Positions 4,591 to 33,159 are shown, counted from the first letter of the stretch. The stretch: DNA of 64,000 nt from a virus (IMGVR_UViG_3300006147_000378:1-64000); one strand, 5' to 3'. Made by a program: numbers and translations. Notes: generated by a model not told the origin, from the sequence alone.

Positions 4591-4704
4591 CATCCCTGAG
4601 CCCAGTCGTCTGTTTCTGTGTAGGTTACAGCTCACACTCTTTTGCAAAGGGGGGTAATCAGGTTGGTATATATCACAGTCAGGCAATCACCCATCTATCA
4701 TCAG

Positions 4705-5799
4705 ATGACACTGGAGGAGTTCCTGTTTCAGAACTTCCAGGCACCTGCGGTTGTGAACGCAAACATGGCGAACACAAAGACATACGAATACGAATATGCA
4801 AGCGAACACTTTACAAGCAGTCTGGACGTTGACAGCCTCATCTACAAGTTGGAGCGGTACAACCAGTCGGTGGCCGCACTGCGGGAGAAAGACCGGCACT
4901 CTCTGTACGACAGCTTCCACATTCCCAAGAAGTCTGGTGGCTTGCGAAAGATTGACGCCCCACGCCCCGAACTGATGGATGCGCTCCGGCGGCTCAAGAC
5001 AATCTTTGAGGAGGACTTTCACGCTCTGTACCATACTGCGGCCTTCGCATATGTGAAAAAGCGCTGCACGGTAGACGCGGTCAAGCGCCATCAGAAGAAC
5101 AACAGTAAGTGGTTCGCCAAGCTCGACCTCCATAACTTCTTCGGCAGCACCACGCTGGACTTTGTGATGACAATGTTTTCCATGGTCTATCCATTCAGCG
5201 AGGTGGTTAAGGTTCCACACGGTCGGCAGGAGTTGAGGAATGCTCTTGAACTTGCCTTTTTGGACGGTGGACTCCCGCAGGGGACACCAATCTCTCCGCT
5301 CATCACAAATGTGATGATGATTCCTGTGGACTTCAAACTCTCCAAGGCGTTCCGAGAGTTCAATAAGCAACGGTACATCTACACTCGGTATGCGGATGAT
5401 TTTATCATCTCGTCCAAGTATGACTTCGATGTCCATACCGTTGAGGATTTGGTTGTCCAAACGCTGAAGGATTTTGGTGCTCCGTTCTCAATCAATAACG
5501 CTAAGACTCGCTACGGCTCATCTGCTGGCCGGAACTGGAATCTTGGTGTTATGTTGAACAAAGACAACGAAATCACGATTGGCAACAAGAAAAAACGGCA
5601 GTTCCAGTCCATGCTGTACAACTACATAACGGATAAAAAGAATGGCGTCGAATGGAGCCGTGAAGACATACAAACTGTGCAGGGGCTCCATAGCTACTAT
5701 CGCATGGTCGAGGAAAAGGCCATTGATGCAATCGTCAGCCATATCAACGACAAGATGAAGGTCGATGTGATGCGCCTCATCAAAGATGATTTAAGGTAA
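4705..5799 (+). CDS. reverse transcriptase, retron-like/defence-RT-like (motifs IPKKSGGLRKI, LDLHNFFGS, LPQGTPISP, YADD, INNAKT)
   Basis: RT motifs 1-7 in order in translation; QGxxxSP (not DGR-type); NAxxH-like AVKRH region. Confidence 0.85.
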   Translation: MTLEEFLFQNFQAPAVVNANMANTKTYEYEYASEHFTSSLDVDSLIYKLERYNQSVAALREKDRHSLYDSFHIPKKSGGLRKIDAPRPELMDALRRLKTIFEEDFHALYHTAAFAYVKKRCTVDAVKRHQKNNSKWFAKLDLHNFFGSTTLDFVMTMFSMVYPFSEVVKVPHGRQELRNALELAFLDGGLPQGTPISPLITNVMMIPVDFKLSKAFREFNKQRYIYTRYADDFIISSKYDFDVHTVEDLVVQTLKDFGAPFSINNAKTRYGSSAGRNWNLGVMLNKDNEITIGNKKKRQFQSMLYNYITDKKNGVEWSREDIQTVQGLHSYYRMVEEKAIDAIVSHINDKMKVDVMRLIKDDLR

Positions 5800-6424: not shown

Positions 6425-6513
6425 GGAGAGATACCCAAGCTGGTTAAGGGGCAAGTTTGCTAAACTTGTAGGCCGAAAACGGTGCGTGGGTTCGAGCCCC
6501 ACTCTCTCCGCCA
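6425..6513 (+). tRNA. tRNA-Ser (anticodon GCT), long variable arm, CCA encoded
   Basis: cloverleaf folded by hand: acceptor GGAGAGA/TCTCTCC, anticodon loop TTGCTAA, T-loop TTCGAGC. Confidence 0.8.
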
Positions 6514-6631
6514 GGTATGGAACCATTCAATCATGCGTCAAAGGGGAGCCTTTACAGTATGCTGGTGCCTGCACCGGAAACTGGTTATACGTTGGTTCGG
6601 CGGGACGCCGCTGCATGAGCGTACTTTATAT

Positions 6632-6707
6632 TGGGGTGTAGCCAAGTGGTTAAGGCACGGGACTTTGACTCCCGCATTCGCTGGTTCGAGTCCAGCCACC
6701 CCAGCCA
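6632..6707 (+). tRNA. tRNA-Gln (anticodon TTG), CCA encoded
   Basis: closely resembles E. coli tRNA-Gln incl. 5' U; anticodon loop CTTTGAC. Confidence 0.8.
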
Positions 6708-6818
6708 TGTGCCGTTTTAAGCAAATTGTGTTTGGGTCAGAGAGGGGCTTCGTGTGCGCACCTTGTGGGGCCCCTCGTAAACAAATGTGCGGTAGGGCTT
6801 ACCTCAAGCCCACAATAT

Positions 6819-6894
6819 GCTGACGTAGCTTAACTGGTAGAGCGGGGCTTTCGTAAAGCTCAGGTTCCCGGTTCAACTCCGGGCGTCAGCTCCA
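6819..6894 (+). tRNA. tRNA-Thr (anticodon CGT), CCA encoded
   Basis: acceptor GCTGACG/CGTCAGC, anticodon loop TTCGTAA, T-arm CCCGG/CCGGG. Confidence 0.75.
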
Positions 6895-7031
6895 GTAGGT
6901 TCTGTTGGTCATGCTCACGTTTGTGCGGTTAGCTCATCACTCAACTGCTATCTCTGTGAGAGACACAGCCGGGTGCACACGGAGTCTTACGGGCGCAGAA
7001 TCCGCCGCTACGATGCGTCGCAGCGGTGTAC

Positions 7032-7106
7032 GCTGGTGTAGCTCAATGGTAGAGCCACCCCTTTGTAAGGGGAGGGTTGCGGGTTCGAGCCCTGTCACCA
7101 GCTCCA
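7032..7106 (+). tRNA. tRNA-Thr (anticodon TGT), CCA encoded
   Basis: acceptor GCTGGTG/CACCAGC, anticodon loop TTTGTAA. Confidence 0.7.
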
Positions 7107-7126
7107 CCCTGTATTACAGGGTTTTT
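7107..7126 (+). terminator. small terminator hairpin after tRNA (CCCTGT-ATT-ACAGGG + TTTTT)
   Basis: 6-bp stem and T5. Confidence 0.5.
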
Positions 7127-7286
7127 ACCACGGTGTTGGACGTGTTGTCCAATTCATTTCCTTTCCTTTCTTTGCTCATGTTGTATGCGTGTGCCGCTAA
7201 GCATAATAGGTGATGCTTGCGGTGAAGGTGGTTCGATTCCGCCAGTGGTACACGTCGTAGCAACAAAGAACCGTACCTCCATATAT

Positions 7287-7362
7287 CTGGGTGTAGCTCA
7301 GTTGGCAGAGCGCCTGTTTTGGGAACAGGAGGCCGTGGGTTCGAGACCCGCCACTCAGACCA
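7287..7362 (+). tRNA. tRNA-Pro (anticodon TGG), CCA encoded
   Basis: acceptor CTGGGTG/CACTCAG, anticodon loop TTTGGGA (G37). Confidence 0.75.
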
Positions 7363-7385: not shown

Positions 7386-7874
7386 ATGCTGTTGTATCAT
7401 GGAACGTCCCAAACGTTCAACGAACCATGTTTGAGTAAGTGTAAGCCGCACCGAGATTTCGGTTGCGGCTTTTATCTTGCCCAAAACTACATAGACGCAC
7501 TAACAATGGCAATCAAGAACTCCCGCACAGGGTTCGTCCAATCATATTTTCTGGACGACACAAGCGAATTGAACGTGCTCGAACTCGATGGATATTCCGA
7601 GGAATGGTTACAATTCGTTGTGCAATCAAGGCTTGGGCAAAAATCAAACTTCGATTTGGTGATTGGGAACATGGCAGGCGGAGGCCGGAATCTGAAAAGC
7701 AAGTTCTCAAAGTACCGCAGTTCTGGCACATCGGTCGAAGAAGTGATGGCGGCTATGCGTAATGAGCTGACCAACACCACACTTGGCGTCCAGTATGCGT
7801 TTCTGACGCCGAAAGCAGTATCAAAACTAAAACTATTGGATGTCGAAACGATTGAAGAGGAGGAATTGGCATGA
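7386..7874 (+). CDS. putative ADP-ribosyltransferase-like protein (PARP-like H-Y-E signature: LYHGTS ... GCGFYLAQNY; DUF3990-like)
   Basis: HGT...GFYLA motif in translation. Confidence 0.5.
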   Translation: MLLYHGTSQTFNEPCLSKCKPHRDFGCGFYLAQNYIDALTMAIKNSRTGFVQSYFLDDTSELNVLELDGYSEEWLQFVVQSRLGQKSNFDLVIGNMAGGGRNLKSKFSKYRSSGTSVEEVMAAMRNELTNTTLGVQYAFLTPKAVSKLKLLDVETIEEEELA

Positions 7875-8428
7875 CCAGAGATGAATTTATCAATGGGGTC
7901 GATACCTGGTACGATTTGAGGGAGTTCTGCGACGAGCACGGCTGCTCGATTTGCGAGGACATCATCGATGATGACGACCGTGATGACGAAATCGACAGCG
8001 ATGTCGAGGATGCTATCCGCAACGACCGTTGGTACGACATCAAGGGCTACCTGGAAGACATTCCAACAGGTTACAGCTACTATCGGCGTGACGGCAGGTT
8101 TGACTATGTGGGCATGGATGACAATGACTTCGAGGAATACAAGTCCGATGTCCTTGAGTGGGCTGACAATGAAGGCGATATCTGGGAGACAGACCCAGAG
8201 GACGAAGATGAGGACTATGATGTCTTCGAGGCGGAGCTTGAGGCCGATGCCGCCGCTTCCGCTGCTGCCGCCGAGGAAGAGCCTGGCCCCGAAGCCGAGG
8301 ATTTCTCTGTCGGCGACCTGATGGGTATGTGCTGCGTTGCCTTCGTCACAATCAAGGAGGCCGATGCTCAGCGTGTCCAGGAAGAAGAGCAGAATCTTCA
8401 GCAGCTCTATCCGAAGGTCTTAAAGTAA
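7871..8428 (+). CDS. highly acidic protein (D/E-rich; candidate DNA-mimic anti-restriction protein)
   Basis: composition seen directly; runs of D/E. Confidence 0.55.
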   Translation: MTRDEFINGVDTWYDLREFCDEHGCSICEDIIDDDDRDDEIDSDVEDAIRNDRWYDIKGYLEDIPTGYSYYRRDGRFDYVGMDDNDFEEYKSDVLEWADNEGDIWETDPEDEDEDYDVFEAELEADAAASAAAAEEEPGPEAEDFSVGDLMGMCCVAFVTIKEADAQRVQEEEQNLQQLYPKVLK

Positions 8429-8720: not shown

Positions 8721-8873
8721 ATGACTGAGAAGAATAAGAAAAAGCAAAATGCGAAAAAGATACACAATTTTTGGACGTGTGCCCGCCCCGTTACCCAGAT
8801 TGTCCCCAACAAAAAAGCATATAACCGTAAGCGAAACAAAGATAACATCAACAAAGGGAGAGACAGCTCATGA
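8721..8873 (+). CDS. small basic peptide (50 aa, K-rich), stop overlaps nicotinamidase start (ATGA)
   Basis: strong RBS GGAGGTG 6 nt upstream of ATG; translational coupling. Confidence 0.35.
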   Translation: MTEKNKKKQNAKKIHNFWTCARPVTQIVPNKKAYNRKRNKDNINKGRDSS

Positions 8874-9421
8874 AATGTCTGGTTGTAGTAGATATGCAGA
8901 ACGATTTCATTGACGGTTCGCTGGGAACGGCGGAAGCCAAGGCCATCGTTGAGAATGTTGTTCAGAAAATCAACGGCTTTGACGGTCTGATTGCGGTCAC
9001 GCAGGACACGCATCCGGCCAACTACCTTAAAACTCAGGAGGGGCACCTGCTTCCCGTCGAGCACTGCATCGAGGGAACTGATGGCTGGAAGCTGAACCCG
9101 GCGGTATATGATGCCATTGATAAGCGGCATGATTCCGGCACACCTGTCGAGTCGTTCTTCAAACCCACCTTCGGTTCTGTGCGGCTCAGTGAGTGGCTGG
9201 CAAACAAGGACTGCGGCGACCCCGTGGAGGAGGTTGTGCTGATTGGTCTCTGTACCGACATCTGTGTCGTTTCCAATGCCCTGCTGGTTAAGGCCGTTCT
9301 GCCGGAGGCCAAGGTTACGGTAGACGCCGCCTGTTGTGCTGGTGTAACGCCGGAGAGCCACGCTGCCGCACTCAAGACCATGCAGATGTGCCAGGTGAAC
9401 GTTGAGAACTGGGAGGGATAA
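8870..9421 (+). CDS. isochorismatase-family hydrolase, nicotinamidase (PncA)-like
   Basis: MKCLVVVDMQNDF... and catalytic Cys region LIGLCTDICV. Confidence 0.75.
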   Translation: MKCLVVVDMQNDFIDGSLGTAEAKAIVENVVQKINGFDGLIAVTQDTHPANYLKTQEGHLLPVEHCIEGTDGWKLNPAVYDAIDKRHDSGTPVESFFKPTFGSVRLSEWLANKDCGDPVEEVVLIGLCTDICVVSNALLVKAVLPEAKVTVDAACCAGVTPESHAAALKTMQMCQVNVENWEG

Positions 9422-9424
9422 AAG

Positions 9425-10231
9425 ATGATTTTGGTAAACGGAAAGCCTTTGACACCCACCCAGTTTCCCGACAACACATCATCCTTCCGCTTCGATGTAA
9501 ACGAGAGTGTCAACAACCTGGAATGGGAGCGGTATGAAATTGAATGGCGCTATGACAGCGATACCGAGTGCATCCTGCTGTGGTATCTGGTGAATCATAT
9601 CCGCTCTGTTGCGGGCTGTGACGCCATCATTTACCTCTACCTGCCCTATATTCCCAACGCCAGAATGGACAGAGTGAAGAACGAGGATGAGGTGTTCACA
9701 CTGAAATGGTTTGCCAACTTCATCAACGAGCTTTGCTTCGAGCGGGTCGTTGTGCTTGACCCGCACTCCAACGTGGCGACGGCACTCATCAACAATGTGC
9801 TTGTCAATCAGCCGGATGGACTCATCCAAGAGGCAATCGACGCCATCGGCGCAGATGACCTCCTGCTTTGCTACCCGGACGAGGGTGCTGCCAAGCGATA
9901 TTCCGAGCTGATGAAGGCCGAGTATATCTTTGGCATCAAACACCGGGATTGGCGTTCTGGCAAGATTGAACGGTTGGAGTTGACCACACCTGAGAAGGTG
10001 GCGGGTCATACAGTCCTGATTGTGGATGATATCTGCTCCCGTGGCGGCACATTCACGCATACGGCCACCGCATTGAGGGAGGCCGGGGCCAAGGCGATTT
10101 ACCTGTATGTCACGCACTGTGAGAGCACCATCTTCAAGGGTTCTGTGTTGACGGATGGTATGATTCAGCACGTTTTTACAACCAACAGCATCTATCGTGG
10201 CGAGCACGAGATGGTGACTGTGTTAGAGTAA
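9425..10231 (+). CDS. ribose-phosphate pyrophosphokinase (Prs)-like PRTase-fold protein; possibly the ADPR-pyrophosphate synthetase of an NAD+ reconstitution pathway
   Basis: PRTase motif VLIVDDICSRGGT; Prs-like PYxxxARxDR and DLH blocks. Confidence 0.75.
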   Translation: MILVNGKPLTPTQFPDNTSSFRFDVNESVNNLEWERYEIEWRYDSDTECILLWYLVNHIRSVAGCDAIIYLYLPYIPNARMDRVKNEDEVFTLKWFANFINELCFERVVVLDPHSNVATALINNVLVNQPDGLIQEAIDAIGADDLLLCYPDEGAAKRYSELMKAEYIFGIKHRDWRSGKIERLELTTPEKVAGHTVLIVDDICSRGGTFTHTATALREAGAKAIYLYVTHCESTIFKGSVLTDGMIQHVFTTNSIYRGEHEMVTVLE

Positions 10232-10250
10232 CTGCGGAGGAGGGTGTATT

Positions 10251-10865
10251 ATGTCCGCAAATTTCGATGCAAGCAAAATGTATACATATCTCAAAGGGTA
10301 TGCAATGGGATTGGAGTGGCATGATACACTCGAAGCCCTTTCGTTTGCCAGGGTCGCACATAAAGACCAACGCCGCAAAAGCGGCGAACCGTATATTGTC
10401 CATCCTTTGACGGTTGCAAGCCATGCGGTGGCACTTGGAATTAAGGAGGATACAATCGTTGCGGCAGCAATTCTTCACGATGTTGTTGAGGATTGCGGTG
10501 TCAAAGCGGAGAATCTTCCTGTTTCTATGGACACGAGAGATGCGGTTCGCAGGCTCACGCATATCAAGGGCGAGCCTCTCGGCCCGTATTACCGTGAAAT
10601 TGGAGAGAACAGGGCCGCATCTATTGTAAAATTGTTGGATAGATGCGATAATGTATCTACCATGGCGGGCGTTTTTTCAGTAGAAAAGGTCGCACAGTAC
10701 ATCGGTGAAACGCGGCAGTTTGTTCTTCCGCTGTTGCGGGAGACAAAAGACAAGTGGCCAAATGACTCGAACGCACTCTTCGTGTTGAAATATCACATTA
10801 TGTCGGTTATTGATGGCCTTGAGGTCTGCCTGCAAGTAAAGAATGAGGTGGGTACAAATGCTTGA
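10251..10865 (+). CDS. HD-domain hydrolase of RelA/SpoT (p)ppGpp-hydrolase type (small alarmone hydrolase-like)
   Basis: HPLTVASHAVALG...AAILHDVVED HD motif. Confidence 0.7.
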   Translation: MSANFDASKMYTYLKGYAMGLEWHDTLEALSFARVAHKDQRRKSGEPYIVHPLTVASHAVALGIKEDTIVAAAILHDVVEDCGVKAENLPVSMDTRDAVRRLTHIKGEPLGPYYREIGENRAASIVKLLDRCDNVSTMAGVFSVEKVAQYIGETRQFVLPLLRETKDKWPNDSNALFVLKYHIMSVIDGLEVCLQVKNEVGTNA

Positions 10866-12063
10866 ACTCCAAGGAAAATTCGCAACCGCAAAAGTTTTCA
10901 CTGATGTGGTTGATAACGAATCCATTTCGCAGGTCATCAATCTCCTGAACCAGCCATATGCGGAAGGTGCCCATGTCCGCATGATGCCCGACATCCACGC
11001 TGGGGCAGGATGTACCATTGGCACTACCATGACTATTAAGGACAAGATTTGCCCGAACCTTGTGGGTGTGGACATCGGTTGTGGTATGGAGACAATCAAA
11101 ATCAAGGAAGACCACATCGAGCCGCAGAAACTGGATACCGTCATCCGTGATGGCATCCCTTCCGGGTTTTCTATCCGGGATAAGGCTCATCGGTTCTCCT
11201 CCGAGATTGACTTGGCCGAGCTGTATTGTGCCAAGCAGGTCAACATTGACCGTGCGCTGTGTAGCATTGGGACTTTGGGCGGCGGCAACCATTTCATCGA
11301 AGCGGACAAGGATGATGATGGTAACATCTATATCGTCGTCCACTCCGGCAGTCGGCATCTGGGGCTACAGATTGCCAACTACTATCAGGAGGCCGCATAC
11401 AAAGCACTCACCAGTTACAGCCAGGAGGAAATCGATGCTGTTATTACCCAACTCAAAGCAGAGGGGCGGCAAAAGGAAATCCAAAAGGCTTTGAAGCAGC
11501 TCAAGTCGAAGCATAGCCCGGTTCCGAAGCCGCTGGCCTATGTTGAGGGAGAGCTGTTTGACCAGTATATCCACGACATGAAGATTGCCCAGCAGTATGC
11601 TGAACTCAACCGCCGGGCAATGATGGATGTGATTGTGAAGGGCATGGGTTTCCATGTTGTCGAGCAGTTTACCACCATCCACAACTACATTGATGTGGAC
11701 AACATGATTCTTCGGAAGGGTGCTGTGTCCGCTCGGGCTGGGGAACGTCTGCTCATCCCCATCAACATGAGAGATGGTAGCCTGATTTGCACCGGCAAAG
11801 GGAACGAGGACTGGAACTGTTCTGCGCCCCATGGCGCTGGACGCCTGATGAGCCGGAGCGCTGCAAAGGAGACCTTCACAGTTTCCGAGTTTAAGAAGCA
11901 GATGGACGGTATCTATACCACATCTGTTGGCCGCAGCACTCTTGATGAGTGCCCGATGGCCTACAAGAACATGGCCGATATCGTGGACAACATCGACCCG
12001 ACGGCGGAGATTAACGCAATCATCAAGCCAATCTACAATTTCAAAGCAGGTGATGACGAATGA
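10858..12063 (+). CDS. rtcB: RNA 3'-phosphate/2',3'-cyclic phosphate ligase RtcB
   Basis: MPDIHAGAGCTIG and GGGNHFIE motifs. Confidence 0.85.
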   Translation: MLELQGKFATAKVFTDVVDNESISQVINLLNQPYAEGAHVRMMPDIHAGAGCTIGTTMTIKDKICPNLVGVDIGCGMETIKIKEDHIEPQKLDTVIRDGIPSGFSIRDKAHRFSSEIDLAELYCAKQVNIDRALCSIGTLGGGNHFIEADKDDDGNIYIVVHSGSRHLGLQIANYYQEAAYKALTSYSQEEIDAVITQLKAEGRQKEIQKALKQLKSKHSPVPKPLAYVEGELFDQYIHDMKIAQQYAELNRRAMMDVIVKGMGFHVVEQFTTIHNYIDVDNMILRKGAVSARAGERLLIPINMRDGSLICTGKGNEDWNCSAPHGAGRLMSRSAAKETFTVSEFKKQMDGIYTTSVGRSTLDECPMAYKNMADIVDNIDPTAEINAIIKPIYNFKAGDDE

Positions 12064-12168
12064 GTGGCTTCGACTGGCGGGGCTATTTAATGTTCTGTGC
12101 ATACATCTGTTTCCTTATTGGCTATACCATCTTCGTCGGCAAACAATTAACAAAGAGGTGGAAGTAAC

Positions 12169-13656
12169 ATGATTCACTACAATCCTTTGCTCTGCCTGGA
12201 TTTCTACAAGACGGCCCACGCAGAGCAGTATCCGCAGACTTTGACCAAGATGGTCTCCTACTATACACCACGCATGACTCGGCTTGGCGATACCGACAAG
12301 GTGACGATGTTCGGTCTCCAGGCATTCATCAAGGAATATCTCAGAGACTCATTTGACATCTGTTTCTTCCAAGAGGACTGGGAGGATGTTTTGGATGACT
12401 ACAAGCGTGTTCTCAACGCTACCATCAACACCGATGGCGTCGGTGTCCAGCGGCTGAAAGCTCTGCACGACCTCGGCTATCTGCCTTTGGAGATTAGGGC
12501 TGTGCCGGAAGGTGTTCGCACTAATATCAAAGTACCGCAAATCGAAATCTCCAATACCCACCCGGATTTCGTGTGGCTGGTCAACTCCATCGAGACCATG
12601 CTTTCCTGCACTATGTGGCACACCCAGGTTTCCGCTGAGGTGGGTTATCGCTACCGTCAAATCGTCAATGAGTACGCCGAGCGCACCTGTGATGACAGTG
12701 TGGTTCGGGCACGGCTCCTTGGCGATTTTTCTATGCGCGGTCAGGAGAGTGTAGAGAGCGCCACCAAGAGCTCCGCCGCTTTCTGCCTCAGTTTCCTGAA
12801 CACGGCCACCGTACCCGCTATTCTTTGGCTGGAGGATAACTACGACTGCGACTGTGTGCATGAGCCAGTTGCATATGGTGCTCTGTCCACCGAACACAGC
12901 GTTATGTGCTCCAACTTTGCCATTGATGGCGATGAGATTACCCATATTCGCCGTCTGCTGACTGAAATCTATCCACACCAGAGCTTCTCTATGGTCAGCG
13001 ACAGTTATGACTACTGGAATCTGGTGGACAATATCCTGCCGCAACTCAAGGATGAGATTCTGGCGCATGACGGGTGCATCTCCATCCGTGGCGACAGCGG
13101 TGACCCGGTTCAGGTTGTGACCGAGACCGTGTTCCGCCTGTGGGATATCTTTGGCGGCACTGTGAACAGTAAGGGGTTCAAGGTTTTGGACTCTCATGTC
13201 AAGGCGCTGTATGGCGACAGCATCACGCCGCAGCGTTGCCAGCAGGTCTATCAGATTCTGGAGGACAATGGGTTTGCTATCAACAACGTGGCGCTGGGTG
13301 TCGGTTCCTTCTCTATGCAATGTCTTGAGACAATGGACGCTGAACAGAAGTCCTATGCTCCATATACCCGTGATACCTTCGGTATCGCCGTGAAGGCAAC
13401 CTATGCAGAGGACGCTGACGGCAAACCCATCATGATTTTCAAGAACCCCAAAACCGACACCGGCCATTTTAAGAAATCCCAGCGTGGCTGTTGCCGTGTG
13501 GTCAAGGACGGCGACAACTACACATATGAGGATGGCCTGACTTGGGCCGAGGCTCAGGAGAACAATGAGCTTCAGACCGTGTTCAAGAATGGTGATATCA
13601 TCAAGAGGTTTACGCTGGATGAAGTGCGTCAGAACCTCCATGGAGGCCAGTTCTGA
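12169..13656 (+). CDS. nicotinamide phosphoribosyltransferase (NAMPT/NadV)-family protein; possibly a nicotinamide ADPR-transferase
   Basis: N-terminal LCLDFYKTAHAEQYP typical of NAMPT family; ~495 aa. Confidence 0.8.
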   Translation: MIHYNPLLCLDFYKTAHAEQYPQTLTKMVSYYTPRMTRLGDTDKVTMFGLQAFIKEYLRDSFDICFFQEDWEDVLDDYKRVLNATINTDGVGVQRLKALHDLGYLPLEIRAVPEGVRTNIKVPQIEISNTHPDFVWLVNSIETMLSCTMWHTQVSAEVGYRYRQIVNEYAERTCDDSVVRARLLGDFSMRGQESVESATKSSAAFCLSFLNTATVPAILWLEDNYDCDCVHEPVAYGALSTEHSVMCSNFAIDGDEITHIRRLLTEIYPHQSFSMVSDSYDYWNLVDNILPQLKDEILAHDGCISIRGDSGDPVQVVTETVFRLWDIFGGTVNSKGFKVLDSHVKALYGDSITPQRCQQVYQILEDNGFAINNVALGVGSFSMQCLETMDAEQKSYAPYTRDTFGIAVKATYAEDADGKPIMIFKNPKTDTGHFKKSQRGCCRVVKDGDNYTYEDGLTWAEAQENNELQTVFKNGDIIKRFTLDEVRQNLHGGQF

Positions 13657-14138
13657 TGGCGGTCAAAGTCATTGATGGCGACCTGTTCCAAACAACCGCT
13701 CCTACCATCTGCCACCAGGTAAATTGCCGTGGCAAGATGGGGAGCGGTGTTGCAAAACAAATCCGTGAGCTGTACCCATTGGCGTATGAGCGCTATCGGC
13801 TTGCTTACAATCGAGAGAAGAGCAACCCGAGTGGGTTGCTTGGCCGCATCCAGCACGTCTGCTGCAAGGACGAGCGAACCGAGACTGGTTTGAGAACCAT
13901 CGTCAATATGTTCGCTCAAGACAGGTACGGATATGATGGTCAATGCTACACGGACTATAAGGCTTTTGAATACTGCCTTGAAAAGCTCAAACACATTGTT
14001 CCTGCCGGTTCTGCGATTGCCATGCCATATAAGATTGGCTGCGGTCTCGCTGGTGGAGACTGGAATATCGTGTATGCTCTAATTGACCGAGTTCTCGGCC
14101 AGCAGTACACGGTGGAACTTTGGAGAAAAGAGGGATAG
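13656..14138 (+). CDS. macro-domain protein (ADP-ribose binding/processing)
   Basis: ICHQVNCRGKMGSGVAKQI glycine-rich macro motif. Confidence 0.7.
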   Translation: MAVKVIDGDLFQTTAPTICHQVNCRGKMGSGVAKQIRELYPLAYERYRLAYNREKSNPSGLLGRIQHVCCKDERTETGLRTIVNMFAQDRYGYDGQCYTDYKAFEYCLEKLKHIVPAGSAIAMPYKIGCGLAGGDWNIVYALIDRVLGQQYTVELWRKEG

Positions 14139-14140
14139 CT

Positions 14141-14881
14141 ATGCTGTATAACCCTGAGAAAATAAAAAACGACCTTGTCCAGTGGATTAGGGACTACTTC
14201 GCCGAGAACGGCCCAAGGTGCAGCGCTGTCGTGGGTATTTCTGGCGGCAAAGACAGCACCATCGTCGCCGCCTTGTGCGTCGAAGCGCTTGGCAAAGACC
14301 GGGTGGTCGGCGTCCTTATGCCGAACACAGAGCAAAATGACATCCTGGACAGCTACAAGCTGGTGGAACACCTTGGCATCGAGTACAAGTTTGTAAACAT
14401 CGGCGAGTCCGTCAATGCGCTGCTTCTTCGCCTGGAGGAGGTTGCGCAGGTAAGTGAGCAGACAAGGGTGAATCTCCCGGCCAGAATCCGCATGGCAACA
14501 CTGTATGCCATCGCCCAATCTCTGCCTAACGGCGGTCGTGTTGCCAATACCTGCAACAGGTCTGAGGATTTTGTAGGTTACTCCACCAAGTTTGGTGACA
14601 GTGCTGGCGACTTCAGCCCACTTGCCAATCTTATGGTAGATGAGGTAAAGCAGATTGGGCATGAGCTTTCACTGCCCGCCGACCTGGTTGATAAGATGCC
14701 GTCCGATGGCCTATGCGGTAAGACCGACGAGGACAATCTTGGTTTTACATACGCACAACTCGATACCTACATCAATTTTGGGTCATGCGGTGATGAGGAA
14801 ATTGACCGCAAAATTGCGGCCATGCACAAGTGCAACCTTCACAAGCTGGAGCCCATGCCCTCCTTCCGTGGTTGGAGATGA
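14141..14881 (+). CDS. nadE: NH3-dependent NAD+ synthetase NadE
   Basis: PP-loop SGGKDS plus NadE-specific blocks aligned by eye to B. subtilis NadE. Confidence 0.8.
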   Translation: MLYNPEKIKNDLVQWIRDYFAENGPRCSAVVGISGGKDSTIVAALCVEALGKDRVVGVLMPNTEQNDILDSYKLVEHLGIEYKFVNIGESVNALLLRLEEVAQVSEQTRVNLPARIRMATLYAIAQSLPNGGRVANTCNRSEDFVGYSTKFGDSAGDFSPLANLMVDEVKQIGHELSLPADLVDKMPSDGLCGKTDEDNLGFTYAQLDTYINFGSCGDEEIDRKIAAMHKCNLHKLEPMPSFRGWR

Positions 14882-16793: not shown

Positions 16794-17498
16794 TTGACCG
16801 CCGAGGACAAAGGTGACTCCAAGGAAGACGAGAGCTTCAGCATTCCTACGTCCGACGGTAAGACCGTTCGTGTGAACCTTGAGTTCTCCTATCGGTTTGA
16901 TGAGGCCCGTGTTGCCGAGACGTTTGTTACCTTTAAGGGTAAGTCCGGCGAGACCATCAAGGACACCTTCATCAAGCCCAAGGTCATCGCTTGGACGCAG
17001 GAGGTTTCTGCCAACTACCCCGTTACGGACATCTTCGGTGATAAGCGTACCGTTATCAACGCTGAGCTGGACACCTATCTGCGTCAGAAGTTTGATGTGT
17101 ACGGTATTATCATCGATACCGTGAACTTCACTGACATCTCCGTTGATGCAGAAACTGCTGCGGCTATTCAGAAGAAGGTTACTGCTCAGCAGGAGCTTGA
17201 GCTTGCCAACATTGAGGCGCAGACCGCCAAGGTGCAGGCCGAGAAAGACCGTGAGGTCGCTCTTATCCAGGCTCAGAAGGACAAGGAGGCCGCCGAAATT
17301 CAGGCGCAGACTGATATCATCGAGGCCGAGGCCGAGGCTGAGGTCGTTCGTATCGCTGCCGAGGCTGAGGCTACTGCCAACCGGCAGATTGCAGCATCTC
17401 TGACGCCTGAGCTGATTGAGAAAATCAAGTATGAGCAGTGGGACGGCAAGATGCCCACTGTCTCCGGCGGCGCAACGCCCATCATCGGAATCAACTAA
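16794..17498 (+). CDS. SPFH/band-7 (prohibitin/stomatin) domain protein, apparently lacking N-terminal TM/first strands (possible truncation or frameshift)
   Basis: C-terminal SPFH core and Ala/Glu/Gln-rich coiled coil; only TTG start; upstream in-frame stop at 16722. Confidence 0.5.
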   Translation: MTAEDKGDSKEDESFSIPTSDGKTVRVNLEFSYRFDEARVAETFVTFKGKSGETIKDTFIKPKVIAWTQEVSANYPVTDIFGDKRTVINAELDTYLRQKFDVYGIIIDTVNFTDISVDAETAAAIQKKVTAQQELELANIEAQTAKVQAEKDREVALIQAQKDKEAAEIQAQTDIIEAEAEAEVVRIAAEAEATANRQIAASLTPELIEKIKYEQWDGKMPTVSGGATPIIGIN

Positions 17499-18104: not shown

Positions 18105-19187
18105 ATGCGCCAGTTAGCAAGTATCAGGAAGATTTCTGATATCCGCCCCATCCCCGGCGCCGACCGCATTGTGGTTGCGCAGGTTGATGGATGGGAGTGT
18201 GTTGTTCAAAAGGACGAGTTCCATGTGGGCGACACCATCGTCTATGTCGAGGTGGACTCTATTGTCCCAGAGCGCCCAGAGTTCGAGTTCCTGCGTGACC
18301 GTAAGTTCCGTGTGCGCACCATCAAGCTGCGTGGGCAGGTCAGTCAGGGCCTGGTTTTGCCGATGTCTATCCTGCCGGATGGCATCTATCCGCTTGGCAG
18401 CGATGTGACGAAGGTTCTCGGAATTGAGAAGTATGACCCCGAAGCACAGCAGGAGGCCATGCTTACCCAGAAGCAGCCGAACAAGCCCAAGAGCAAGTTT
18501 GCCCAGTTCATGATGCGGTTCAAGTGGTATCGCAAGCTGTTCATGAAGTCGAAGCGCAAGGGCGGGTTCCCAGAGTGGATTGTCAAGACGGACGAGACCC
18601 GTATCCAGAACCTGACCACCCTCTTTGATATTGAGCGGAGGAACGGCACCAAGTTCTCCGTCACTGAGAAGGTGGACGGTCAGTCTGCGACCTACTATCT
18701 CAGAAAGGTCTCCCGGCGCAAGTATGAGTTCGGGGTTTGCAGTCGAAACATTCACCTGGGTACTCCTGACAACAGCTCCTATTGGACTGTGGCAAAGAAG
18801 TACGACATCGAGAACGTGCTGAAGAAGCTCATCGGTGATTATGAAACTATCGTTTTACAAGGTGAAATCTGTGGTAACCAGATTCAGGGGAACAAGTATC
18901 ACATCAGTGGTTATGAGCTTTTCGCCTTCAACCTGATTTACCCAGGGCACAAGTGCGGCACTGCCGAAATCAAAGACCTGCTCTCCCCGTTTGGAATCAA
19001 AACGGTTCCAATCCTTGAGGAAGGCAAGGTTTTACCGGACACTATCGCAGATTTGGTAGAGTATTCCAAAGGTAAATCGATAGTTCGGAAAGAACAGAAG
19101 CGGGAGGGTGTTGTGATGCGCAACGTTCAGAAGAACATCAGCTTCAAGGTCATCAACCCAGACTTCCTGCTCGCAGAAAAGGACTGA
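18105..19187 (+). CDS. ATP-dependent RNA ligase-family nucleotidyltransferase (motif I KVDGQS) with N-terminal OB-like domain
   Basis: KVDG motif I; family assignment RNA vs DNA ligase is inference from context. Confidence 0.6.
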   Translation: MRQLASIRKISDIRPIPGADRIVVAQVDGWECVVQKDEFHVGDTIVYVEVDSIVPERPEFEFLRDRKFRVRTIKLRGQVSQGLVLPMSILPDGIYPLGSDVTKVLGIEKYDPEAQQEAMLTQKQPNKPKSKFAQFMMRFKWYRKLFMKSKRKGGFPEWIVKTDETRIQNLTTLFDIERRNGTKFSVTEKVDGQSATYYLRKVSRRKYEFGVCSRNIHLGTPDNSSYWTVAKKYDIENVLKKLIGDYETIVLQGEICGNQIQGNKYHISGYELFAFNLIYPGHKCGTAEIKDLLSPFGIKTVPILEEGKVLPDTIADLVEYSKGKSIVRKEQKREGVVMRNVQKNISFKVINPDFLLAEKD

Positions 19188-21139: not shown

Positions 21140-21688
21140 ATGGTCGTAGACAACAATGCTGTTGGTGATTATATCATCAAAGAAATTACGGCGAAGGAAG
21201 GCAGCTTACATCAACTCCATCATGACGCTATGGGGACTGAGTGCTTCATTGTGGACTTAGAGAAAGGTCAGCGGTCTTTATTGAGATACAAACCGGAGTA
21301 CGACAACCGCTATCATCGGCTCCACACTTCAACGGTTTTGGGTATCAAGACCAGCGGCGGCGAGAACGATGTGGTTATTGAAACCTTGAATACCGTGTAC
21401 CACCTGATACGCAACAACTTTGACGACACCTTCTCTGGCATCAATTCCTATACATACGAGGTCGCTAAGGAGACTGTCACCGGCTATCTCAATGAGCAGG
21501 ACGATTCCTATTTTGAGAAGTATGGCATCACAAAGGAAGCTGCATTGGAAAACGATGACCTGATTTCCCAATGTGCGTTCCTACATCACAGTTTAATCAA
21601 GGAAGCGGGGCTTGACTATGCGTGGGCTTGCGACTTTGCTTGCTCACATGGCCTGTCAAATACCATGGCTTTTGCCCAAGCAGATTAA
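21140..21688 (+). CDS. hypothetical protein
   Basis: ORF with RBS GGAGG. Confidence 0.5.
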   Translation: MVVDNNAVGDYIIKEITAKEGSLHQLHHDAMGTECFIVDLEKGQRSLLRYKPEYDNRYHRLHTSTVLGIKTSGGENDVVIETLNTVYHLIRNNFDDTFSGINSYTYEVAKETVTGYLNEQDDSYFEKYGITKEAALENDDLISQCAFLHHSLIKEAGLDYAWACDFACSHGLSNTMAFAQAD

Positions 21689-21698
21689 GGAGGGCGTT

Positions 21699-22445
21699 AT
21701 GAGTAACAAGAAGGATTCTCTCGGCGACCGCATGAAGAGGTATGAGGGTGTGTCGCGCAACTTCCTTGCCCGCAGAGTGCCAGTCATTATCCGGCTCGAT
21801 GGAAAGGCATTCCACACTTTCACAAAGGGTATGAGGAAACCGTTTGACCGCATCCTGATGAACGCCATGCAGGACACAATGCAGTATCTTTGCAAGAATA
21901 TCCAGGGCTGTGTGTTTGGATACACACAATCTGATGAGATTACCCTGGTTCTTATCGACTACACCACTATTAAGACAGACGCATGGTTCGGCTACAATGT
22001 CCAGAAGATGACCAGTATTGCCGCATCAATGGCTACACTCGCATTCAACTCCTGTTTTATCGACGGTGCCAATGCAGCACTCCAGTATAGGGCTTTCTCC
22101 ATCCCGGAGGATGAAGTTTGCAACTGCTTGATTTGGCGTCAACAGGATGCCACAAGAAACAGTATTGAGGCTGTTGGTCAGGCGAACTTCAGCCACAAAG
22201 AATTGCAGGGGAAAAGCTGCAACGATATCCAGGAAATGCTGTGGAGTAAGCGCAGCATCAACTGGAATGACTTCCCTGTGGATTGCAAGCGTGGTGCGTG
22301 CTGCTATCGGAAGTGTAGTGAGGTTCAGATGCAAGACCCACGGGATACCAGTAAAACTATCACGGTCGCTCGGCGTGGTTGGGTCATTGACAGGGAACCT
22401 CCTATCTTTACACAAGATAGAAACTACATTGAGGGGTGGCTGTAA
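21699..22445 (+). CDS. tRNA-His guanylyltransferase (Thg1)-like 3'-5' RNA polymerase
   Basis: VIIRLDGKAFHTF, YTQSDEITLV, IWRQQD blocks match the Thg1 family. Confidence 0.8.
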   Translation: MSNKKDSLGDRMKRYEGVSRNFLARRVPVIIRLDGKAFHTFTKGMRKPFDRILMNAMQDTMQYLCKNIQGCVFGYTQSDEITLVLIDYTTIKTDAWFGYNVQKMTSIAASMATLAFNSCFIDGANAALQYRAFSIPEDEVCNCLIWRQQDATRNSIEAVGQANFSHKELQGKSCNDIQEMLWSKRSINWNDFPVDCKRGACCYRKCSEVQMQDPRDTSKTITVARRGWVIDREPPIFTQDRNYIEGWL

Positions 22446-22993: not shown

Positions 22994-23104
22994 AACTTGT
23001 TGACAAAAATGGGAAGGCTGAAGGCGTTGTAGCACAAGACATCAAGCCCCATTTGATGCCAGCCTTTATTGCTCTACTATTACAAAACAAGGACGGTGAC
23101 ACCG

Positions 23105-24268
23105 ATGATATATCTTGATAATGCCGCAACCACAAGGATTGCGCCGGAGGTGCTTGAGGCGATGATGCCATATCTCACCACTGAGTATGGGAACGCAGGC
23201 ACTCTATACAGTTTTGGCCGTTCTGCCGCCGATGCTATACAGAAAGCTCGGGCGCAGGTGGCAACGCTATTTGGCTGTACGCCAGACCATGTGATTTTTA
23301 CATCTGGCGGCAGCGAGGGTAACAATACAGTTTTTAAGGGGCTTCGGCACAAGTTCGCAGAGCAAGGCAAGAAGCACCTGATTGTTTCAGCGATTGAACA
23401 CGATTCCGTCTTGCGGGCCGCAGAAAGCCTGACCAAAGACGGATTTTATATTACATATATCAAGCCCGGTTCTGACGGACGCATCTCCCCTAAAGCGGTG
23501 GAAGCAGCGATTCACGAGGATACCGGGCTTGTTTCTGTTATGTTCGTCAACAACGAGATTGGTGCCGTCAACGACATCAACGAGATAGGCCGTATTTGCA
23601 GGCAGCATGAGGTCATGTTTCACACTGACTGTGTGCAGGCGGCTGGTCAGTACGAGTTGTCAGTCCATAAGAACGACGCTGATTTTGCGACCGTATCCTC
23701 CCACAAGATTCATGGCCCTAAAGGGGTCGGTGCTTTGTATGTGAGAGAAAAGGATTTCCTTCCGCTGGTCTGTGGCGGAGCGGAGCAAGAGTTTGGTCTG
23801 CGTGGCGGTACAGAGAATGTGCCTGGGATTGTAGGCTTCGGTGCAGCAGCAAGTATCGCCGTAGAGAGAATGCGCGATGACCTAATTAGTGTATCCACGT
23901 TGAAACAGCACTTCTATATGGCGCTGTTAGACGCATTTAGGCATCTTGACCTTCCAACGGACTGCATTCGTGTAAACGGGCACCCAGTTATTGAGCCGGG
24001 CAAGACATTGAATTTGCGGTTTGACAGCGTAGATGCACAAACACTCTTGCTTATGCTGGATGCGAATGGTGTCTGTGTTTCCGCTGGGTCTGCTTGCCGC
24101 AGCCATGAAGCCGAGCCGAGCCATGTGCTGACAGCTATGGGACTAACTCCAAATGAAGCGAGGAGTTCTGTTCGGGTTTCCTTCTCAAAGTACAATACAA
24201 CTGATGAGGTGGTGTGTGCTGCACAGAGTTTTGCCTCGTGCGTTGCCACTGCCTTGGAACTCATATAA
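23105..24268 (+). CDS. cysteine desulfurase (NifS/IscS family, PLP-dependent)
   Basis: IYLDNAATT start, SSHKIHGPKG PLP-lysine region. Confidence 0.8.
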   Translation: MIYLDNAATTRIAPEVLEAMMPYLTTEYGNAGTLYSFGRSAADAIQKARAQVATLFGCTPDHVIFTSGGSEGNNTVFKGLRHKFAEQGKKHLIVSAIEHDSVLRAAESLTKDGFYITYIKPGSDGRISPKAVEAAIHEDTGLVSVMFVNNEIGAVNDINEIGRICRQHEVMFHTDCVQAAGQYELSVHKNDADFATVSSHKIHGPKGVGALYVREKDFLPLVCGGAEQEFGLRGGTENVPGIVGFGAAASIAVERMRDDLISVSTLKQHFYMALLDAFRHLDLPTDCIRVNGHPVIEPGKTLNLRFDSVDAQTLLLMLDANGVCVSAGSACRSHEAEPSHVLTAMGLTPNEARSSVRVSFSKYNTTDEVVCAAQSFASCVATALELI

Positions 24269-30782: not shown

Positions 30783-31805
30783 ATGACAATCGAACAAATC
30801 AAAGAGATGGTGAACGGCCCCGAGTACGATTTTCTCAGAACCAATCCCCATCTCCAGAACAGAATCATTTTCTTGACGCTGGGCGGCAGTTACTCCTATG
30901 GAACCAACGTGGAAACCTCCGACGTTGATGTCCGAGGATGTGCCCTGAACCGTCCATCCGATTTGCTCGGCCTCACAAACTTCGAGCAGGTCGTAAACAC
31001 ACAGACCGACACTACGGTTTATGCGTTCAACAAGCTCATCACGCTACTTCTCAACTGCAACCCAAACACAATCGAGATGTTGGGCTGCAAACCGGAGCAC
31101 TATTTCCTGCTTACGGATGTTGGCCAGGAAATGATTGAAAACAGGAAACTGTTTATGTCCCGGCGTGCTGTTCATTCCTTTGGTGGCTATGCCTCTCAAC
31201 AACTCCGGCGGCTTGAGAATGCCCTGGCCAGGGATAAGATGGCACAGGCTATGAAGGAGGAACACATCCGGCGCTCCATGGAAGGTGCTGTTAAGTCTTT
31301 CTCCGACCGATACACCTCTTTTGACAAGGGTAGCTTCGTCCTTTATACGGCGGAAAGCCAGCGTGAAGACCTCGACCGTGAGATTTTTGCGGACATCCAC
31401 CTCGACAAATTCCCAGTTCGGGAGTTCAACAGCATGATGAACGACCTGACCAATGTGCTGGGAAACTACGAGAAGTTGAACCACAGAAACCATAAGAAGG
31501 ATGATAACCATCTCAACAAGCACGCCATGCACCTTATCCGTCTGTATCTGATGTGCCTGGACATCCTGGAGAAGGGCGATATCATCACCTACCGGGAAGC
31601 CGACCACGACCTGCTTATGAGCATCCGCCGTGGCGACTATCAGCGTGAAGACGGAACGTACATGGACGAGTTTTTCGAGATGGTCAACGACTTCGAGCGG
31701 AGGCTGGACTATGCAAAGAACAACACGAGCCTCCCTGACAACCCCGATATGAAACGAGTCGAGGAGTTCGTCATGGAGGTAAACAGGAGGGCTCTGAATG
31801 AGTAG
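30783..31805 (+). CDS. pol-beta superfamily nucleotidyltransferase-domain protein
   Basis: LTLGGSYSYGTNVETSDVDVRG (GS...DxD) motif. Confidence 0.65.
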   Translation: MTIEQIKEMVNGPEYDFLRTNPHLQNRIIFLTLGGSYSYGTNVETSDVDVRGCALNRPSDLLGLTNFEQVVNTQTDTTVYAFNKLITLLLNCNPNTIEMLGCKPEHYFLLTDVGQEMIENRKLFMSRRAVHSFGGYASQQLRRLENALARDKMAQAMKEEHIRRSMEGAVKSFSDRYTSFDKGSFVLYTAESQREDLDREIFADIHLDKFPVREFNSMMNDLTNVLGNYEKLNHRNHKKDDNHLNKHAMHLIRLYLMCLDILEKGDIITYREADHDLLMSIRRGDYQREDGTYMDEFFEMVNDFERRLDYAKNNTSLPDNPDMKRVEEFVMEVNRRALNE

Positions 31806-33159
31806 AATCACAATTCCAGATGGGGCCAGGGAAATCATTGACACGCTGACCTCTGCTGGTTTTGAAGCGTATGTGGTAGGTGGCTGTGTCCGCGACAGCC
31901 TACTGGGCCTGGAGCCTCACGATTGGGACATTTGCACATCTGCATTACCATCAGATGTTATGTCGATTTTTTCAGAAAAGAGAATTATTGGCACGGGAAT
32001 GAAGCATGGCACTGTTACAATTCTTACAGATAGTGGCGGATACGAGGTCACGACTTTCCGCATTGACGGTGATTATTCAGACCATCGGCGACCAGACAGT
32101 GTGACCTTCACGACCAGCCTGGATGAGGATTTGTCACGCAGAGACTTTACCATCAACGCTATGGCCTACAACGATGCGGTCGGCCTAATTGACCCGTTCG
32201 GCGGTATATATTCTTTATGCAACCGAGAAATCTCATGCGTTGGCAGTCCTGCTCACAGATTTGAGGAAGATGCACTTCGCATCATGCGGGCTCTCCGTTT
32301 TGCATCCACATACGGGTTCTGTATCGAAGATAGAACGGCAAAAGCGATTCATCTGTTCGCTCCAAGCCTGAATAATATTGCTGTGGAACGTATCCAGTCT
32401 GAGCTATGTAAGCTCTTGCTGGGTGACGGAGCGCTTAACATCCTCTTGGATTACAGTGACGTGATTGCCACCATTATTCCAGAGATAGAACCTTGTATCG
32501 GGTTCGACCAAAACAACCGTTACCATGAGTACACAGTGTATGACCACATTGCTTATGCGGTTGCAAACTACAAGGGTAAAGACATCTCTGTCAAAGTTGC
32601 TCTTCTTTTGCACGATATTGGGAAACCTCTATGCTACACGGAGGATATAAACGGAGGCCATTTCCATGGACACGCTGTTCCAAGCCGTGATATTGCGGAA
32701 GCCGTTATGAATCGTCTGCGTTTTGACAACAGGACTAAAGCCGAGGTTTTAGAGCTGGTCTTGTACCATGACGCAGTGATTGAGCCGACGCCAAAGACCG
32801 TGAGACGGTGGCTGAATAAGATTGGCAAACATCGGTTTTCACAGTTGCTTAAAGTCCGAATGGCGGATATCCTGGCTCACTCCAAGAGAACGCAGCAGTC
32901 ACGCATCGAACGCTGTAATGCACTCAAGTCCCTTATCGCAGAGGTTCTGGAAGCAGAACAATGTTTCTCACTGAAAGACCTTGCCATCCACGGCAATGAT
33001 GTGCTGTCGCTCGGTGTTCCAGAAGGGAAAATTGTAGGGGATATTCTCCGGCATATCCTGGACATGGTAATCAACGGTGATGTCCCAAATGAAATCGAAG
33101 AGCAGATAGATATCGCCATGCAGTATTTGACGGAGCATCAACATGAGTGGAAGGAATGA
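31798..33159 (+). CDS. cca: tRNA nucleotidyltransferase (CCA-adding enzyme) with HD domain
   Basis: GGCVRDSLLG + DWD head motif; LLHDIGK HD motif. Confidence 0.8.
   Translation: MSRITIPDGAREIIDTLTSAGFEAYVVGGCVRDSLLGLEPHDWDICTSALPSDVMSIFSEKRIIGTGMKHGTVTILTDSGGYEVTTFRIDGDYSDHRRPDSVTFTTSLDEDLSRRDFTINAMAYNDAVGLIDPFGGIYSLCNREISCVGSPAHRFEEDALRIMRALRFASTYGFCIEDRTAKAIHLFAPSLNNIAVERIQSELCKLLLGDGALNILLDYSDVIATIIPEIEPCIGFDQNNRYHEYTVYDHIAYAVANYKGKDISVKVALLLHDIGKPLCYTEDINGGHFHGHAVPSRDIAEAVMNRLRFDNRTKAEVLELVLYHDAVIEPTPKTVRRWLNKIGKHRFSQLLKVRMADILAHSKRTQQSRIERCNALKSLIAEVLEAEQCFSLKDLAIHGNDVLSLGVPEGKIVGDILRHILDMVINGDVPNEIEEQIDIAMQYLTEHQHEWKE

Follow-up and report, generated by a model that had tools for sequence, protein, structure and literature searches.

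Depletion of nicotinamide adenine dinucleotide (NAD+) is a central antiviral strategy of bacteria, and phage systems that restore it (NARP1, NARP2, NARP3 and NARP1-AP) have been described since 2024. In NARP1, Adps and Namat are encoded in one co-directional cluster (Osterman et al., bioRxiv 10.1101/2024.02.11.579819; PMC12774641, PMC13586617), and pyrophosphorylation of ADP-ribose (ADPR) has been shown both biochemically and structurally for the Adps of ICP1 (PMC13586617). NARP1-AP comprises in addition Adpp, a Poa1p-like macro phosphatase present in 15% of NARP1 operons, which turns ADPR-1''-phosphate (ADPR-1''P), the product of the aRES defence, into ADPR (bioRxiv 10.64898/2026.01.28.702374). 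NARP2 (NadV and NMNAT) and NARP3 (PnuC and NadR; PMC13464706) likewise restore NAD+ during infection. Here we analyse a set of NAD+ metabolism genes at positions 8870-14881 of IMGVR_UViG_3300006147_000378:1-64000, a stretch of viral DNA of 64,000 nucleotides (nt), referred to below as the window. We read this module, with a probability of roughly 0.55, as a NARP1-derived phage NAD+ reconstitution operon whose core is formed by PncA, Adps, a variant Namat and NadE, with a macro domain protein as a frequent accessory.

Our literature search, which was incomplete and may have missed an earlier description, covered NARP1, NARP1-AP, NARP2, NARP3 and RyDEP and found no link between NARP1 and PncA, NadE, nicotinate or nicotinate adenine dinucleotide (NaAD). 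Within the reach of this search no publication on a nicotinate-based phage route for rebuilding NAD+ was found either, and such a route appears not yet described.

Results

Gene content of the module

The module consists of seven co-directional genes, whose identities are backed by Pfam, NCBIfam and PHROG scans (protein lengths in amino acids, aa):

8870-9421, + strand: PncA-like nicotinamidase (isochorismatase), 183 aa; PF00857, E = 2.6e-22
9425-10231, + strand: Adps-type enzyme resembling phosphoribosyl pyrophosphate synthetase (PRPS), 268 aa; phrog_619, 247.6 bits
10251-10865, + strand: small HD_4 hydrolase, RelA/SpoT-hydrolase-like; PF13328, E = 1.6e-11; hydrolase part of TIGR00691, E = 3.7e-22
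10843-12063, + strand: RtcB RNA ligase; PF01139, E = 7e-65; phrog_1075, 484.6 bits
12169-13656, + strand: NAMPT-like transferase of the Namat clade, 495 aa; phrog_448, 522 bits; NF006629, 456.5 bits
13656-14138, + strand: Poa1p-like macro domain protein, 160 aa; phrog_335 ('phosphatase'), E = 2e-38; PF01661, weak
14141-14881, + strand: NadE, NH3-dependent NAD+ synthetase, 246 aa; TIGR00552, 183 bits; PF02540, E = 2.4e-53

Neighbouring genes directly adjoin one another or share a few bases, and the sole exception is a gap of 105 nt ahead of the NAMPT-like gene. The initial annotation had named a nicotinamidase, a Prs-like and a NAMPT-like enzyme, a macro domain and NadE at these positions, and the profile scans agree on all five.

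The NAMPT-like transferase is a Namat with a remodelled base pocket

The NAMPT-like protein scores 403 bits against the SpbetaL1 Namat (9w5x), as compared to 182 bits against the Xanthomonas (Xcc) Nampt and about 154 bits against human NAMPT. It is 41% identical to homologues encoded directly after a Prs-like gene in Staphylococcus and Bacillus phages, and its identity to T4-like NadV-type proteins is only about 29%. An alignment and a neighbour-joining tree were built from the full-length proteins (at least 430 aa) among the best 150 representatives of 50%-identity clusters, together with reference and locus sequences (158 in total). Phylogenetic placement had been proposed earlier as a check on the family assignment, and it puts the window protein inside the Namat part of the tree.

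Ala213 of the window Namat aligns to D215 of the SpbetaL1 enzyme, the nicotinamide-binding Asp, and to D219 of human NAMPT. D215 hydrogen-bonds nicotinamide, and its replacement by Ala lowers NAD+ synthesis from nicotinamide 8.1-fold (PMC12774641); human D219 defines substrate specificity (PMC7096376), and for D219S a switch in substrate affinity is listed (PMC4919578 Table 2, citing Khan 2006). Among the 158 sequences this column holds 99 Asp, 1 Glu, 38 Ala, 19 Ser and 1 Val. The 58 non-acidic sequences (Ala, Ser or Val) together make up a single clade that contains no Asp sequence and has the Staphylococcus and Bacillus phage Namats as its sister. When all 495 columns were ranked by their divergence between the acidic and the non-acidic group, the following positions emerged (window residue, then SpbetaL1 Namat and human NAMPT equivalents):

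A213 (D215, D219): divergence 1.00, rank 1-3; acidic group Asp, non-acidic group Ala/Ser
G185 (H187, H191): divergence 0.97, rank 1-3; acidic group His in 98/99, non-acidic group Ser/Gly/Cys
S240 (A242, A244): divergence 0.95, rank 1-3; acidic group Ala in 97/99, non-acidic group Ser in 57/58
N211 (G213, G217): divergence 0.83, rank 8; acidic group Gly in 98/99, non-acidic group Lys/Asn

A242 is listed as a nicotinamide-pocket residue of Namat (PMC12774641), while H191, G217 and A244, like D219, line the nicotinamide/FK866 pocket of human NAMPT, where mutations of H191, G217 and A244 block pocket inhibitors (PMC4919578). Since the most divergent columns are nicotinamide-pocket positions, the strongest clade-specific changes concentrate in the base-binding pocket. 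We also compared the pocket with E. coli PncB, which belongs to the same superfamily, is specific for nicotinate and has collinear motifs (DFGTRR ... VGTSN ... GTQAHEW ... RHDSGDP); this comparison follows the order of the motifs alone, as the hhalign alignment extended over no more than the C-terminal half. By these motifs the D219 column is Ser and the A244 column Thr in PncB, and at both columns the variant pocket is shifted towards the state of the nicotinate enzyme.

A further form of the nicotinamide-binding column was encountered among the acidic Namats of the locus collection described below: Glu-type proteins with the sequence G-S-E-T (loci L107, L110, L114, L117, L118, L120, L122, L124, L142, L144, L145, L148, L149, L155, L159, L164 and L167). 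These loci have the order Namat, accessory gene, Adps, and none has PncA or NadE.

PncA and NadE accompany the non-acidic Namat

Loci were collected from IMG/VR, GTDB genomes and deposited phages, and were typed by the D215 column and by the neighbours recognised within 7 kb with family hidden Markov models. After removal of identical proteins 191 loci remained, 124 with a non-acidic and 67 with an Asp/Glu Namat. Both PncA and NadE are present in 110 of the 124 non-acidic (Ala/Ser/Val) loci, only one of the two in 12 and neither in 2; all 67 Asp/Glu loci have neither (both, 0; one only, 0). Taken singly, each gene occurs in 116/124 non-acidic and 0/67 acidic loci, and a contig end truncates 10 of the 14 incomplete non-acidic loci. 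Adps was found in both groups (117/124 and 64/67). The genes stand in at least four orders, PncA-Adps-Namat-Macro-NadE, which is the commonest, PncA-Adps-Namat-NadE, Adps-Namat-Macro-NadE-PncA and PncA-Namat-NadE-Adps. The association persists down to the Namat of Phage Phass-1, which is about 32-36% identical depending on the aligner. The grouping of PncA, Adps, Namat and NadE is thus far beyond chance.

The PncA-like protein has nicotinamidases as its best solved relatives (1ILW, 3PL1, 2WT9 and 2H0R). Of 112 phage homologues, 109-112 retain each residue of its catalytic triad (D8/K98/C132) and each of its metal ligands (D46/H48/H65); a catalytic Lys near H87, as placed by a phmmer alignment, was ruled out by this family conservation, which gives K98. 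NadE exceeds the TIGR00552 cut-off of 63.65 bits by a wide margin (183 bits), and the SGGKDS PP-loop and the other motifs are conserved in 114 homologues. For its start, gene callers use the ATG at 14141 on identical contigs, and a TTG at 14120 is also open. The protein is of the short NH3-dependent form, with the P. horikoshii and Francisella (3FIU) enzymes as nearest solved relatives. Francisella NadE prefers nicotinate mononucleotide (NaMN).

Two more genes were noticed by eye beside this association. One resembles NADAR/YbiA (L019:9778-10200 and 18 other non-acidic loci), the other adenylosuccinate synthetase (PurA/PurZ, with a GDEGKGQ motif; L057:10111-11217 and 11 other non-acidic loci).

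The Prs-like enzyme is of the Adps type

The family phrog_619 takes in both the window Prs-like protein (247.6 bits) and the verified ICP1 Adps (285 bits). The window protein contains VLIVDDICSRGGT. Against TIGR01251, the profile of canonical PRPS, it scores 91.7 bits, below the cut-off of 113, and the best solved PRPS reaches 58.9 bits only. It is short (268 aa) and has no PRPS C-terminal module (alpha11-alpha12). Its residues R80, H114, D152, K172 and D201/D202 align to R87, H121, D161, K185 and D212/D213 of ICP1 Adps, and the Adps catalytic residues are conserved across 180 homologues. The PP loop, DDICSRGGTF, has the S-x-GGTF form found in the sister Asp-type Adps of Staphylococcus and Bacillus phages, DDL[TI]S[YK]GGTF. 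Together with the bit scores of the NAMPT-like protein, the family shared with ICP1 Adps bears out the earlier proposal that the Prs-like/NAMPT-like pair is of NARP1 type and not of NadV/PRPS type.

The adenine clamp of the variant Namat

The Arg of the clamp loop (Arg40 in SpbetaL1) is kept in the window Namat, where TPRMTRL aligns to TPRTSRV, and most members of the non-acidic clade retain it. The clamp helix of the window protein departs from the motif GS-X-phi-X-phi-X-phi-TRD, with aromatics at positions 3 and 7. The corresponding stretch reads GSFSMQ[CLETMDAEQKSYA]PYTRD; the first aromatic (Phe at position 3) is kept, and a 13-aa insertion before P-Y-TRD breaks the motif. Basal members of the non-acidic clade retain the canonical form, GSYTYQYVTRD, and Phass-1, which has PncA and NadE, reads GAYTYQYVTRD.

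The insertion itself (GSFSMQC...P[YF]TRD; window positions 13300-13370, residues about 378-402) is hypervariable in both length and sequence. Among the variants recovered from 120 relatives that are otherwise 77-89% identical, the stretch spans 22 to 35 residues.

The macro domain protein and a HAD-like hydrolase

The start of the macro gene and the stop codon of Namat overlap (ATGA). In a comparison of the macro family profile with the PDB, only the uncharacterised BT1257 (101.9 bits) ranked above yeast Poa1p (6LFQ/6LFU; 96 bits, E about 1e-26), which is thus the closest characterised homologue of the family. The gene occurs in 71 of the 124 non-acidic loci (57%) and in 9 Asp/Glu loci. The initial suggestion that ADPR-phosphate could enter the pathway by way of the macro domain is in line with the published NARP1-AP and its Adpp, and the match of the family profile to Poa1p is consistent with such a role.

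A small HAD-like hydrolase, of a family distinct from the macro protein (phrog_1238, labelled 'phosphoheptose isomerase'; weak match to Pfam Hydrolase_3), was found in 36 of the 191 loci (13 non-acidic, 23 Asp/Glu), never together with the macro gene. In Phass-1 (L005:8597-9016) and in Bacillus phage Kida (L088:4975-5424) it lies just after Namat, the place of the macro gene in the window. Possibly, NARP1 has in it a second accessory phosphatase of analogous function.

Enzymes absent from the module

Profile scans and a motif scan found neither PncB (NAPRT) nor NadD in the window region, and neither was found to recur beside the related loci. The initial annotation had seen no NMNAT, and a crude scan of all frames of the window for the (H/T)xGH nucleotidyltransferase motif likewise gave no match. 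Across the 124 non-acidic loci no NadD/NMNAT-like family, nor any further family, is common to more than 25.

HD hydrolase, RtcB and RNA repair

The unusual separation of Adps and Namat by the HD hydrolase and RtcB, which had been pointed out before, is real and rare: it occurs in 2/124 related loci, with RtcB alone in a few more. RtcB lies near the module in 10/124 non-acidic and 3/67 acidic loci. Further RNA-repair genes of the window encode an Rnl-type RNA ligase with a PHA02142 OB domain, a Thg1-like tRNA-His guanylyltransferase, an RlaP nucleotidyltransferase and a CCA-adding enzyme. The HD hydrolase is probably outside the NAD pathway, and HD and RtcB look like an RNA-repair cassette of their own that entered the operon in this lineage.

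The RNA/tRNA-repair kit spread across the window is unusually complete (10251-12063, 18105-19187, 21612-22445, 30783-33159 and 6425-7362). RtcB or another RNA ligase also adjoins NARP1-type loci elsewhere (L001, L009-L013, L101, L105 and L121).

Host, distribution and phage context

The exact NAMPT-like protein of the window is indexed in 78 blocks of a public assembly collection. Relatives with 78-79% identity are present in cultured Oscillospiraceae genomes, namely Dysosmobacter segnis, Hominicoprocola fusiformis and Oscillospiraceae bacterium 50-58 (L177, L178 and L181), and further ones in many metagenome-assembled genomes of animal-gut Clostridia; the host is therefore a member of the gut Clostridia. 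The occurrence of modules inside contigs of cultured Oscillospiraceae genomes, together with a large serine recombinase in the window (56387-57901), suggests a temperate or carried phage. Among 50,697 deposited phage records only 8 have PncA-like genes, all 8 from human gut or faecal samples, as compared to 2,043 with NAMPT-like genes. The non-acidic Namat clade covers dozens of 50%-identity clusters.

In the window the module stands in large-phage surroundings, with DnaB, a primase, a DNA polymerase, NT5C, NrdD and the serine recombinase. Among deposited phages, a megablast search with the 6-kb region found no relatives at the DNA level. NadE is followed by an ATP-dependent DNA ligase gene, and five tRNA genes lie just upstream of the module (6425-7362), out of six in the whole window. 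A tRNA-Lys(TTT) at 103-195 is, with 93 nt, unusually long for a class I tRNA, and a reverse transcriptase (4642-5799; RVT_1, E = 4.9e-20; phrog_2825) stands between its gene and the tRNA cluster. Directly upstream of the module, 7386-8428 holds a DUF3990 protein (E = 1e-27) and then a very acidic protein of 185 aa, which had no family match in the profile scan. Also near the module are a gene resembling class-V aminotransferases/cysteine desulfurases (23069-24268; PF00266, E = 1e-77) and an SPFH/Band 7 protein (16794-17498).

A scan for promoters and terminators gave results at shuffle level and was uninformative on operon structure. A 35-aa open reading frame in the gap between RtcB and Namat (12060-12167) is called on identical contigs; it was dropped since it is not conserved elsewhere.

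Discussion

We propose that the products of the module would act on what NAD+-depleting defence leaves behind. NADase effectors of the host would split NAD+ into nicotinamide and ADPR, or ADPR-1''P, from which the macro protein would strip the 1''-phosphate where needed. Adps would then convert ADPR and ATP into ADPR pyrophosphate (ADPR-PP), and PncA would convert nicotinamide into nicotinate. The variant Namat, without the amide-binding Asp, would join nicotinate and ADPR-PP directly to NaAD, and NadE would finish NAD+ from NaAD, ATP and ammonia. The substrates of the variant Namat, the NaAD intermediate and the anti-defence role are what we infer from the gene identities, family placement, pocket substitutions and gene association reported above. 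Because PncA and NadE are tied to the non-acidic Namat and to its remodelled base pocket, they are probably integral parts of one pathway, which probably runs via nicotinate and NaAD. Direct formation of NaAD from nicotinate and ADPR-PP is favoured by the clamp motif of basal clade members, the catalytic residues and PP loop of Adps, the macro protein and the lack of a recurrent NadD- or NMNAT-like gene. We see about even odds that the variant Namat is a nicotinate ADP-ribosyltransferase making NaAD in one step, within a four-enzyme, nicotinate-dependent pathway that is widespread in phages of gut Clostridia. Possibly, a lack or a rapid deamidation of nicotinamide in gut-Clostridia hosts selected for the nicotinate route.

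Compared to NARP1, the window shares the co-directional cluster of Adps and Namat, the catalytic residues of both enzymes, the clamp-loop Arg and the first clamp aromatic. The two genes are also close, 1.9 kb apart here and with no module gene between them in most related loci. The window differs by Ala in place of Asp215, by the three other pocket changes and the 13-aa clamp insertion, by having PncA and NadE as obligatory partners, and by a proposed transferase product that is NaAD and not NAD+. As in NARP1-AP, a Poa1p-like macro gene lies within two genes of the NARP1 genes, here directly adjoining Namat, but it is accessory to a four-gene instead of a two-gene core; its likeness to the Adpp of Vibrio phage Gary is judged by shared homology to Poa1p. 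The Preiss-Handler pathway (PncA, PncB, NadD and NadE) is represented by its first and last enzymes, and nicotinate is probably the base here as well; unlike that pathway, the window lacks PncB and NadD, and Adps and the variant Namat acting on ADPR would replace the middle steps. NARP2 and NARP3 were rejected as readings of the locus, which has no NMNAT, NadR or PnuC.

The presence of Adps, Namat and a Poa1p-like macro gene, as in the published three-gene NARP1-AP (bioRxiv 10.64898/2026.01.28.702374), as well as the retained clamp-loop Arg and first clamp-helix aromatic, would also suit a classical NARP1-AP in which Namat still joins nicotinamide to ADPR-PP while PncA and NadE boost the host Preiss-Handler pathway in parallel. 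We consider this unlikely. The amide-binding column is non-acidic wherever PncA and NadE occur and Asp/Glu in all 67 loci without them, three more pocket positions are altered in a clade-specific manner, and loss of the Asp is costly for nicotinamide-dependent synthesis in the SpbetaL1 enzyme (PMC12774641). A parallel boost would also require PncB and NadD, and the phages encode neither. The initial annotation had seen PncA and NadE in this way, as added Preiss-Handler steps beside a nicotinamide-using Namat, a view that does not fit with Ala213, the remodelled pocket and the gene association across 191 loci. Similarly improbable is a route through phosphoribosyl pyrophosphate (PRPP), in which the Prs-like enzyme makes PRPP, the variant Namat forms NaMN as a nicotinate phosphoribosyltransferase, NaMN is turned into NaAD by the NadD of the host and the phage NadE finishes; in a sub-variant, NadE would amidate NaMN to nicotinamide mononucleotide (NMN), Francisella-like, and host NMNAT would complete the synthesis. 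The pocket changes indicate nicotinate whichever the ribosyl donor, the SpbetaL1 Namat keeps PRPP-dependent activity in vitro (PMC12774641), the insertion interrupts the adenine-clamp helix in the subclade of the window, and NadE resembles short forms including Francisella 3FIU. Nevertheless, the Prs-like protein is Adps-type by its family, its score under the PRPS cut-off and the missing C-terminal module, and its PP loop matches that of the sister Asp-type phage Adps. Basal clade members have the full Namat clamp motif, association with a Poa1p-like ADPR-1''P phosphatase is sensible only with ADPR as substrate, and such a route would need NadD or NMNAT from the host. Less probable still is that the same chemistry serves no anti-defence role and forms an auxiliary metabolic cassette raising NAD+ for replication in niacin-dependent gut Clostridia, for which speaks the richness of the window in nucleotide-metabolism (NrdD, NT5C) and RNA-repair genes. 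Against this, Adps/Namat systems have been shown experimentally to counter NAD+-depleting defence (bioRxiv 10.1101/2024.02.11.579819), and a design that consumes ADPR and ADPR-1''P suits the recycling of NADase products over de novo supply.

Several points weigh against the nicotinate-dependent operon that we favour. The evidence is drawn entirely from sequence comparison and gene context, and there is no evident reason why the longer, deamidated route should suit a phage better. As the non-acidic state had a single origin, the association with PncA and NadE amounts to one event and long maintenance, not to many independent events. The comparison with PncB depends on motif collinearity. With the variable clamp-helix insertion in the window's own subclade, recognition of ADPR-PP may differ there, and as NadE is near the Francisella enzyme, an NaMN-to-NMN variant may apply. 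In human NAMPT, D219A is listed as a loss of activity rather than a switch (PMC4919578).

If the proposed operon is correct, it would represent a fourth logic of phage NAD+ restoration, in which ADPR is recycled through nicotinate and NaAD. To our knowledge, no reaction of nicotinate and ADPR-PP to NaAD is known in any organism, and a new enzyme activity would have arisen from a few pocket substitutions in Namat. The module is abundant, and its restriction to uncultured gut phages would account for its having been missed so far; tools seeking only Adps and Namat would probably label it plain NARP1. The pocket signature provides a simple annotation rule, no Asp at the D215 column and Ser at the A242 column. 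Finally, the Oscillospiraceae isolates that carry relatives of the module offer culturable systems in which experiments are feasible.

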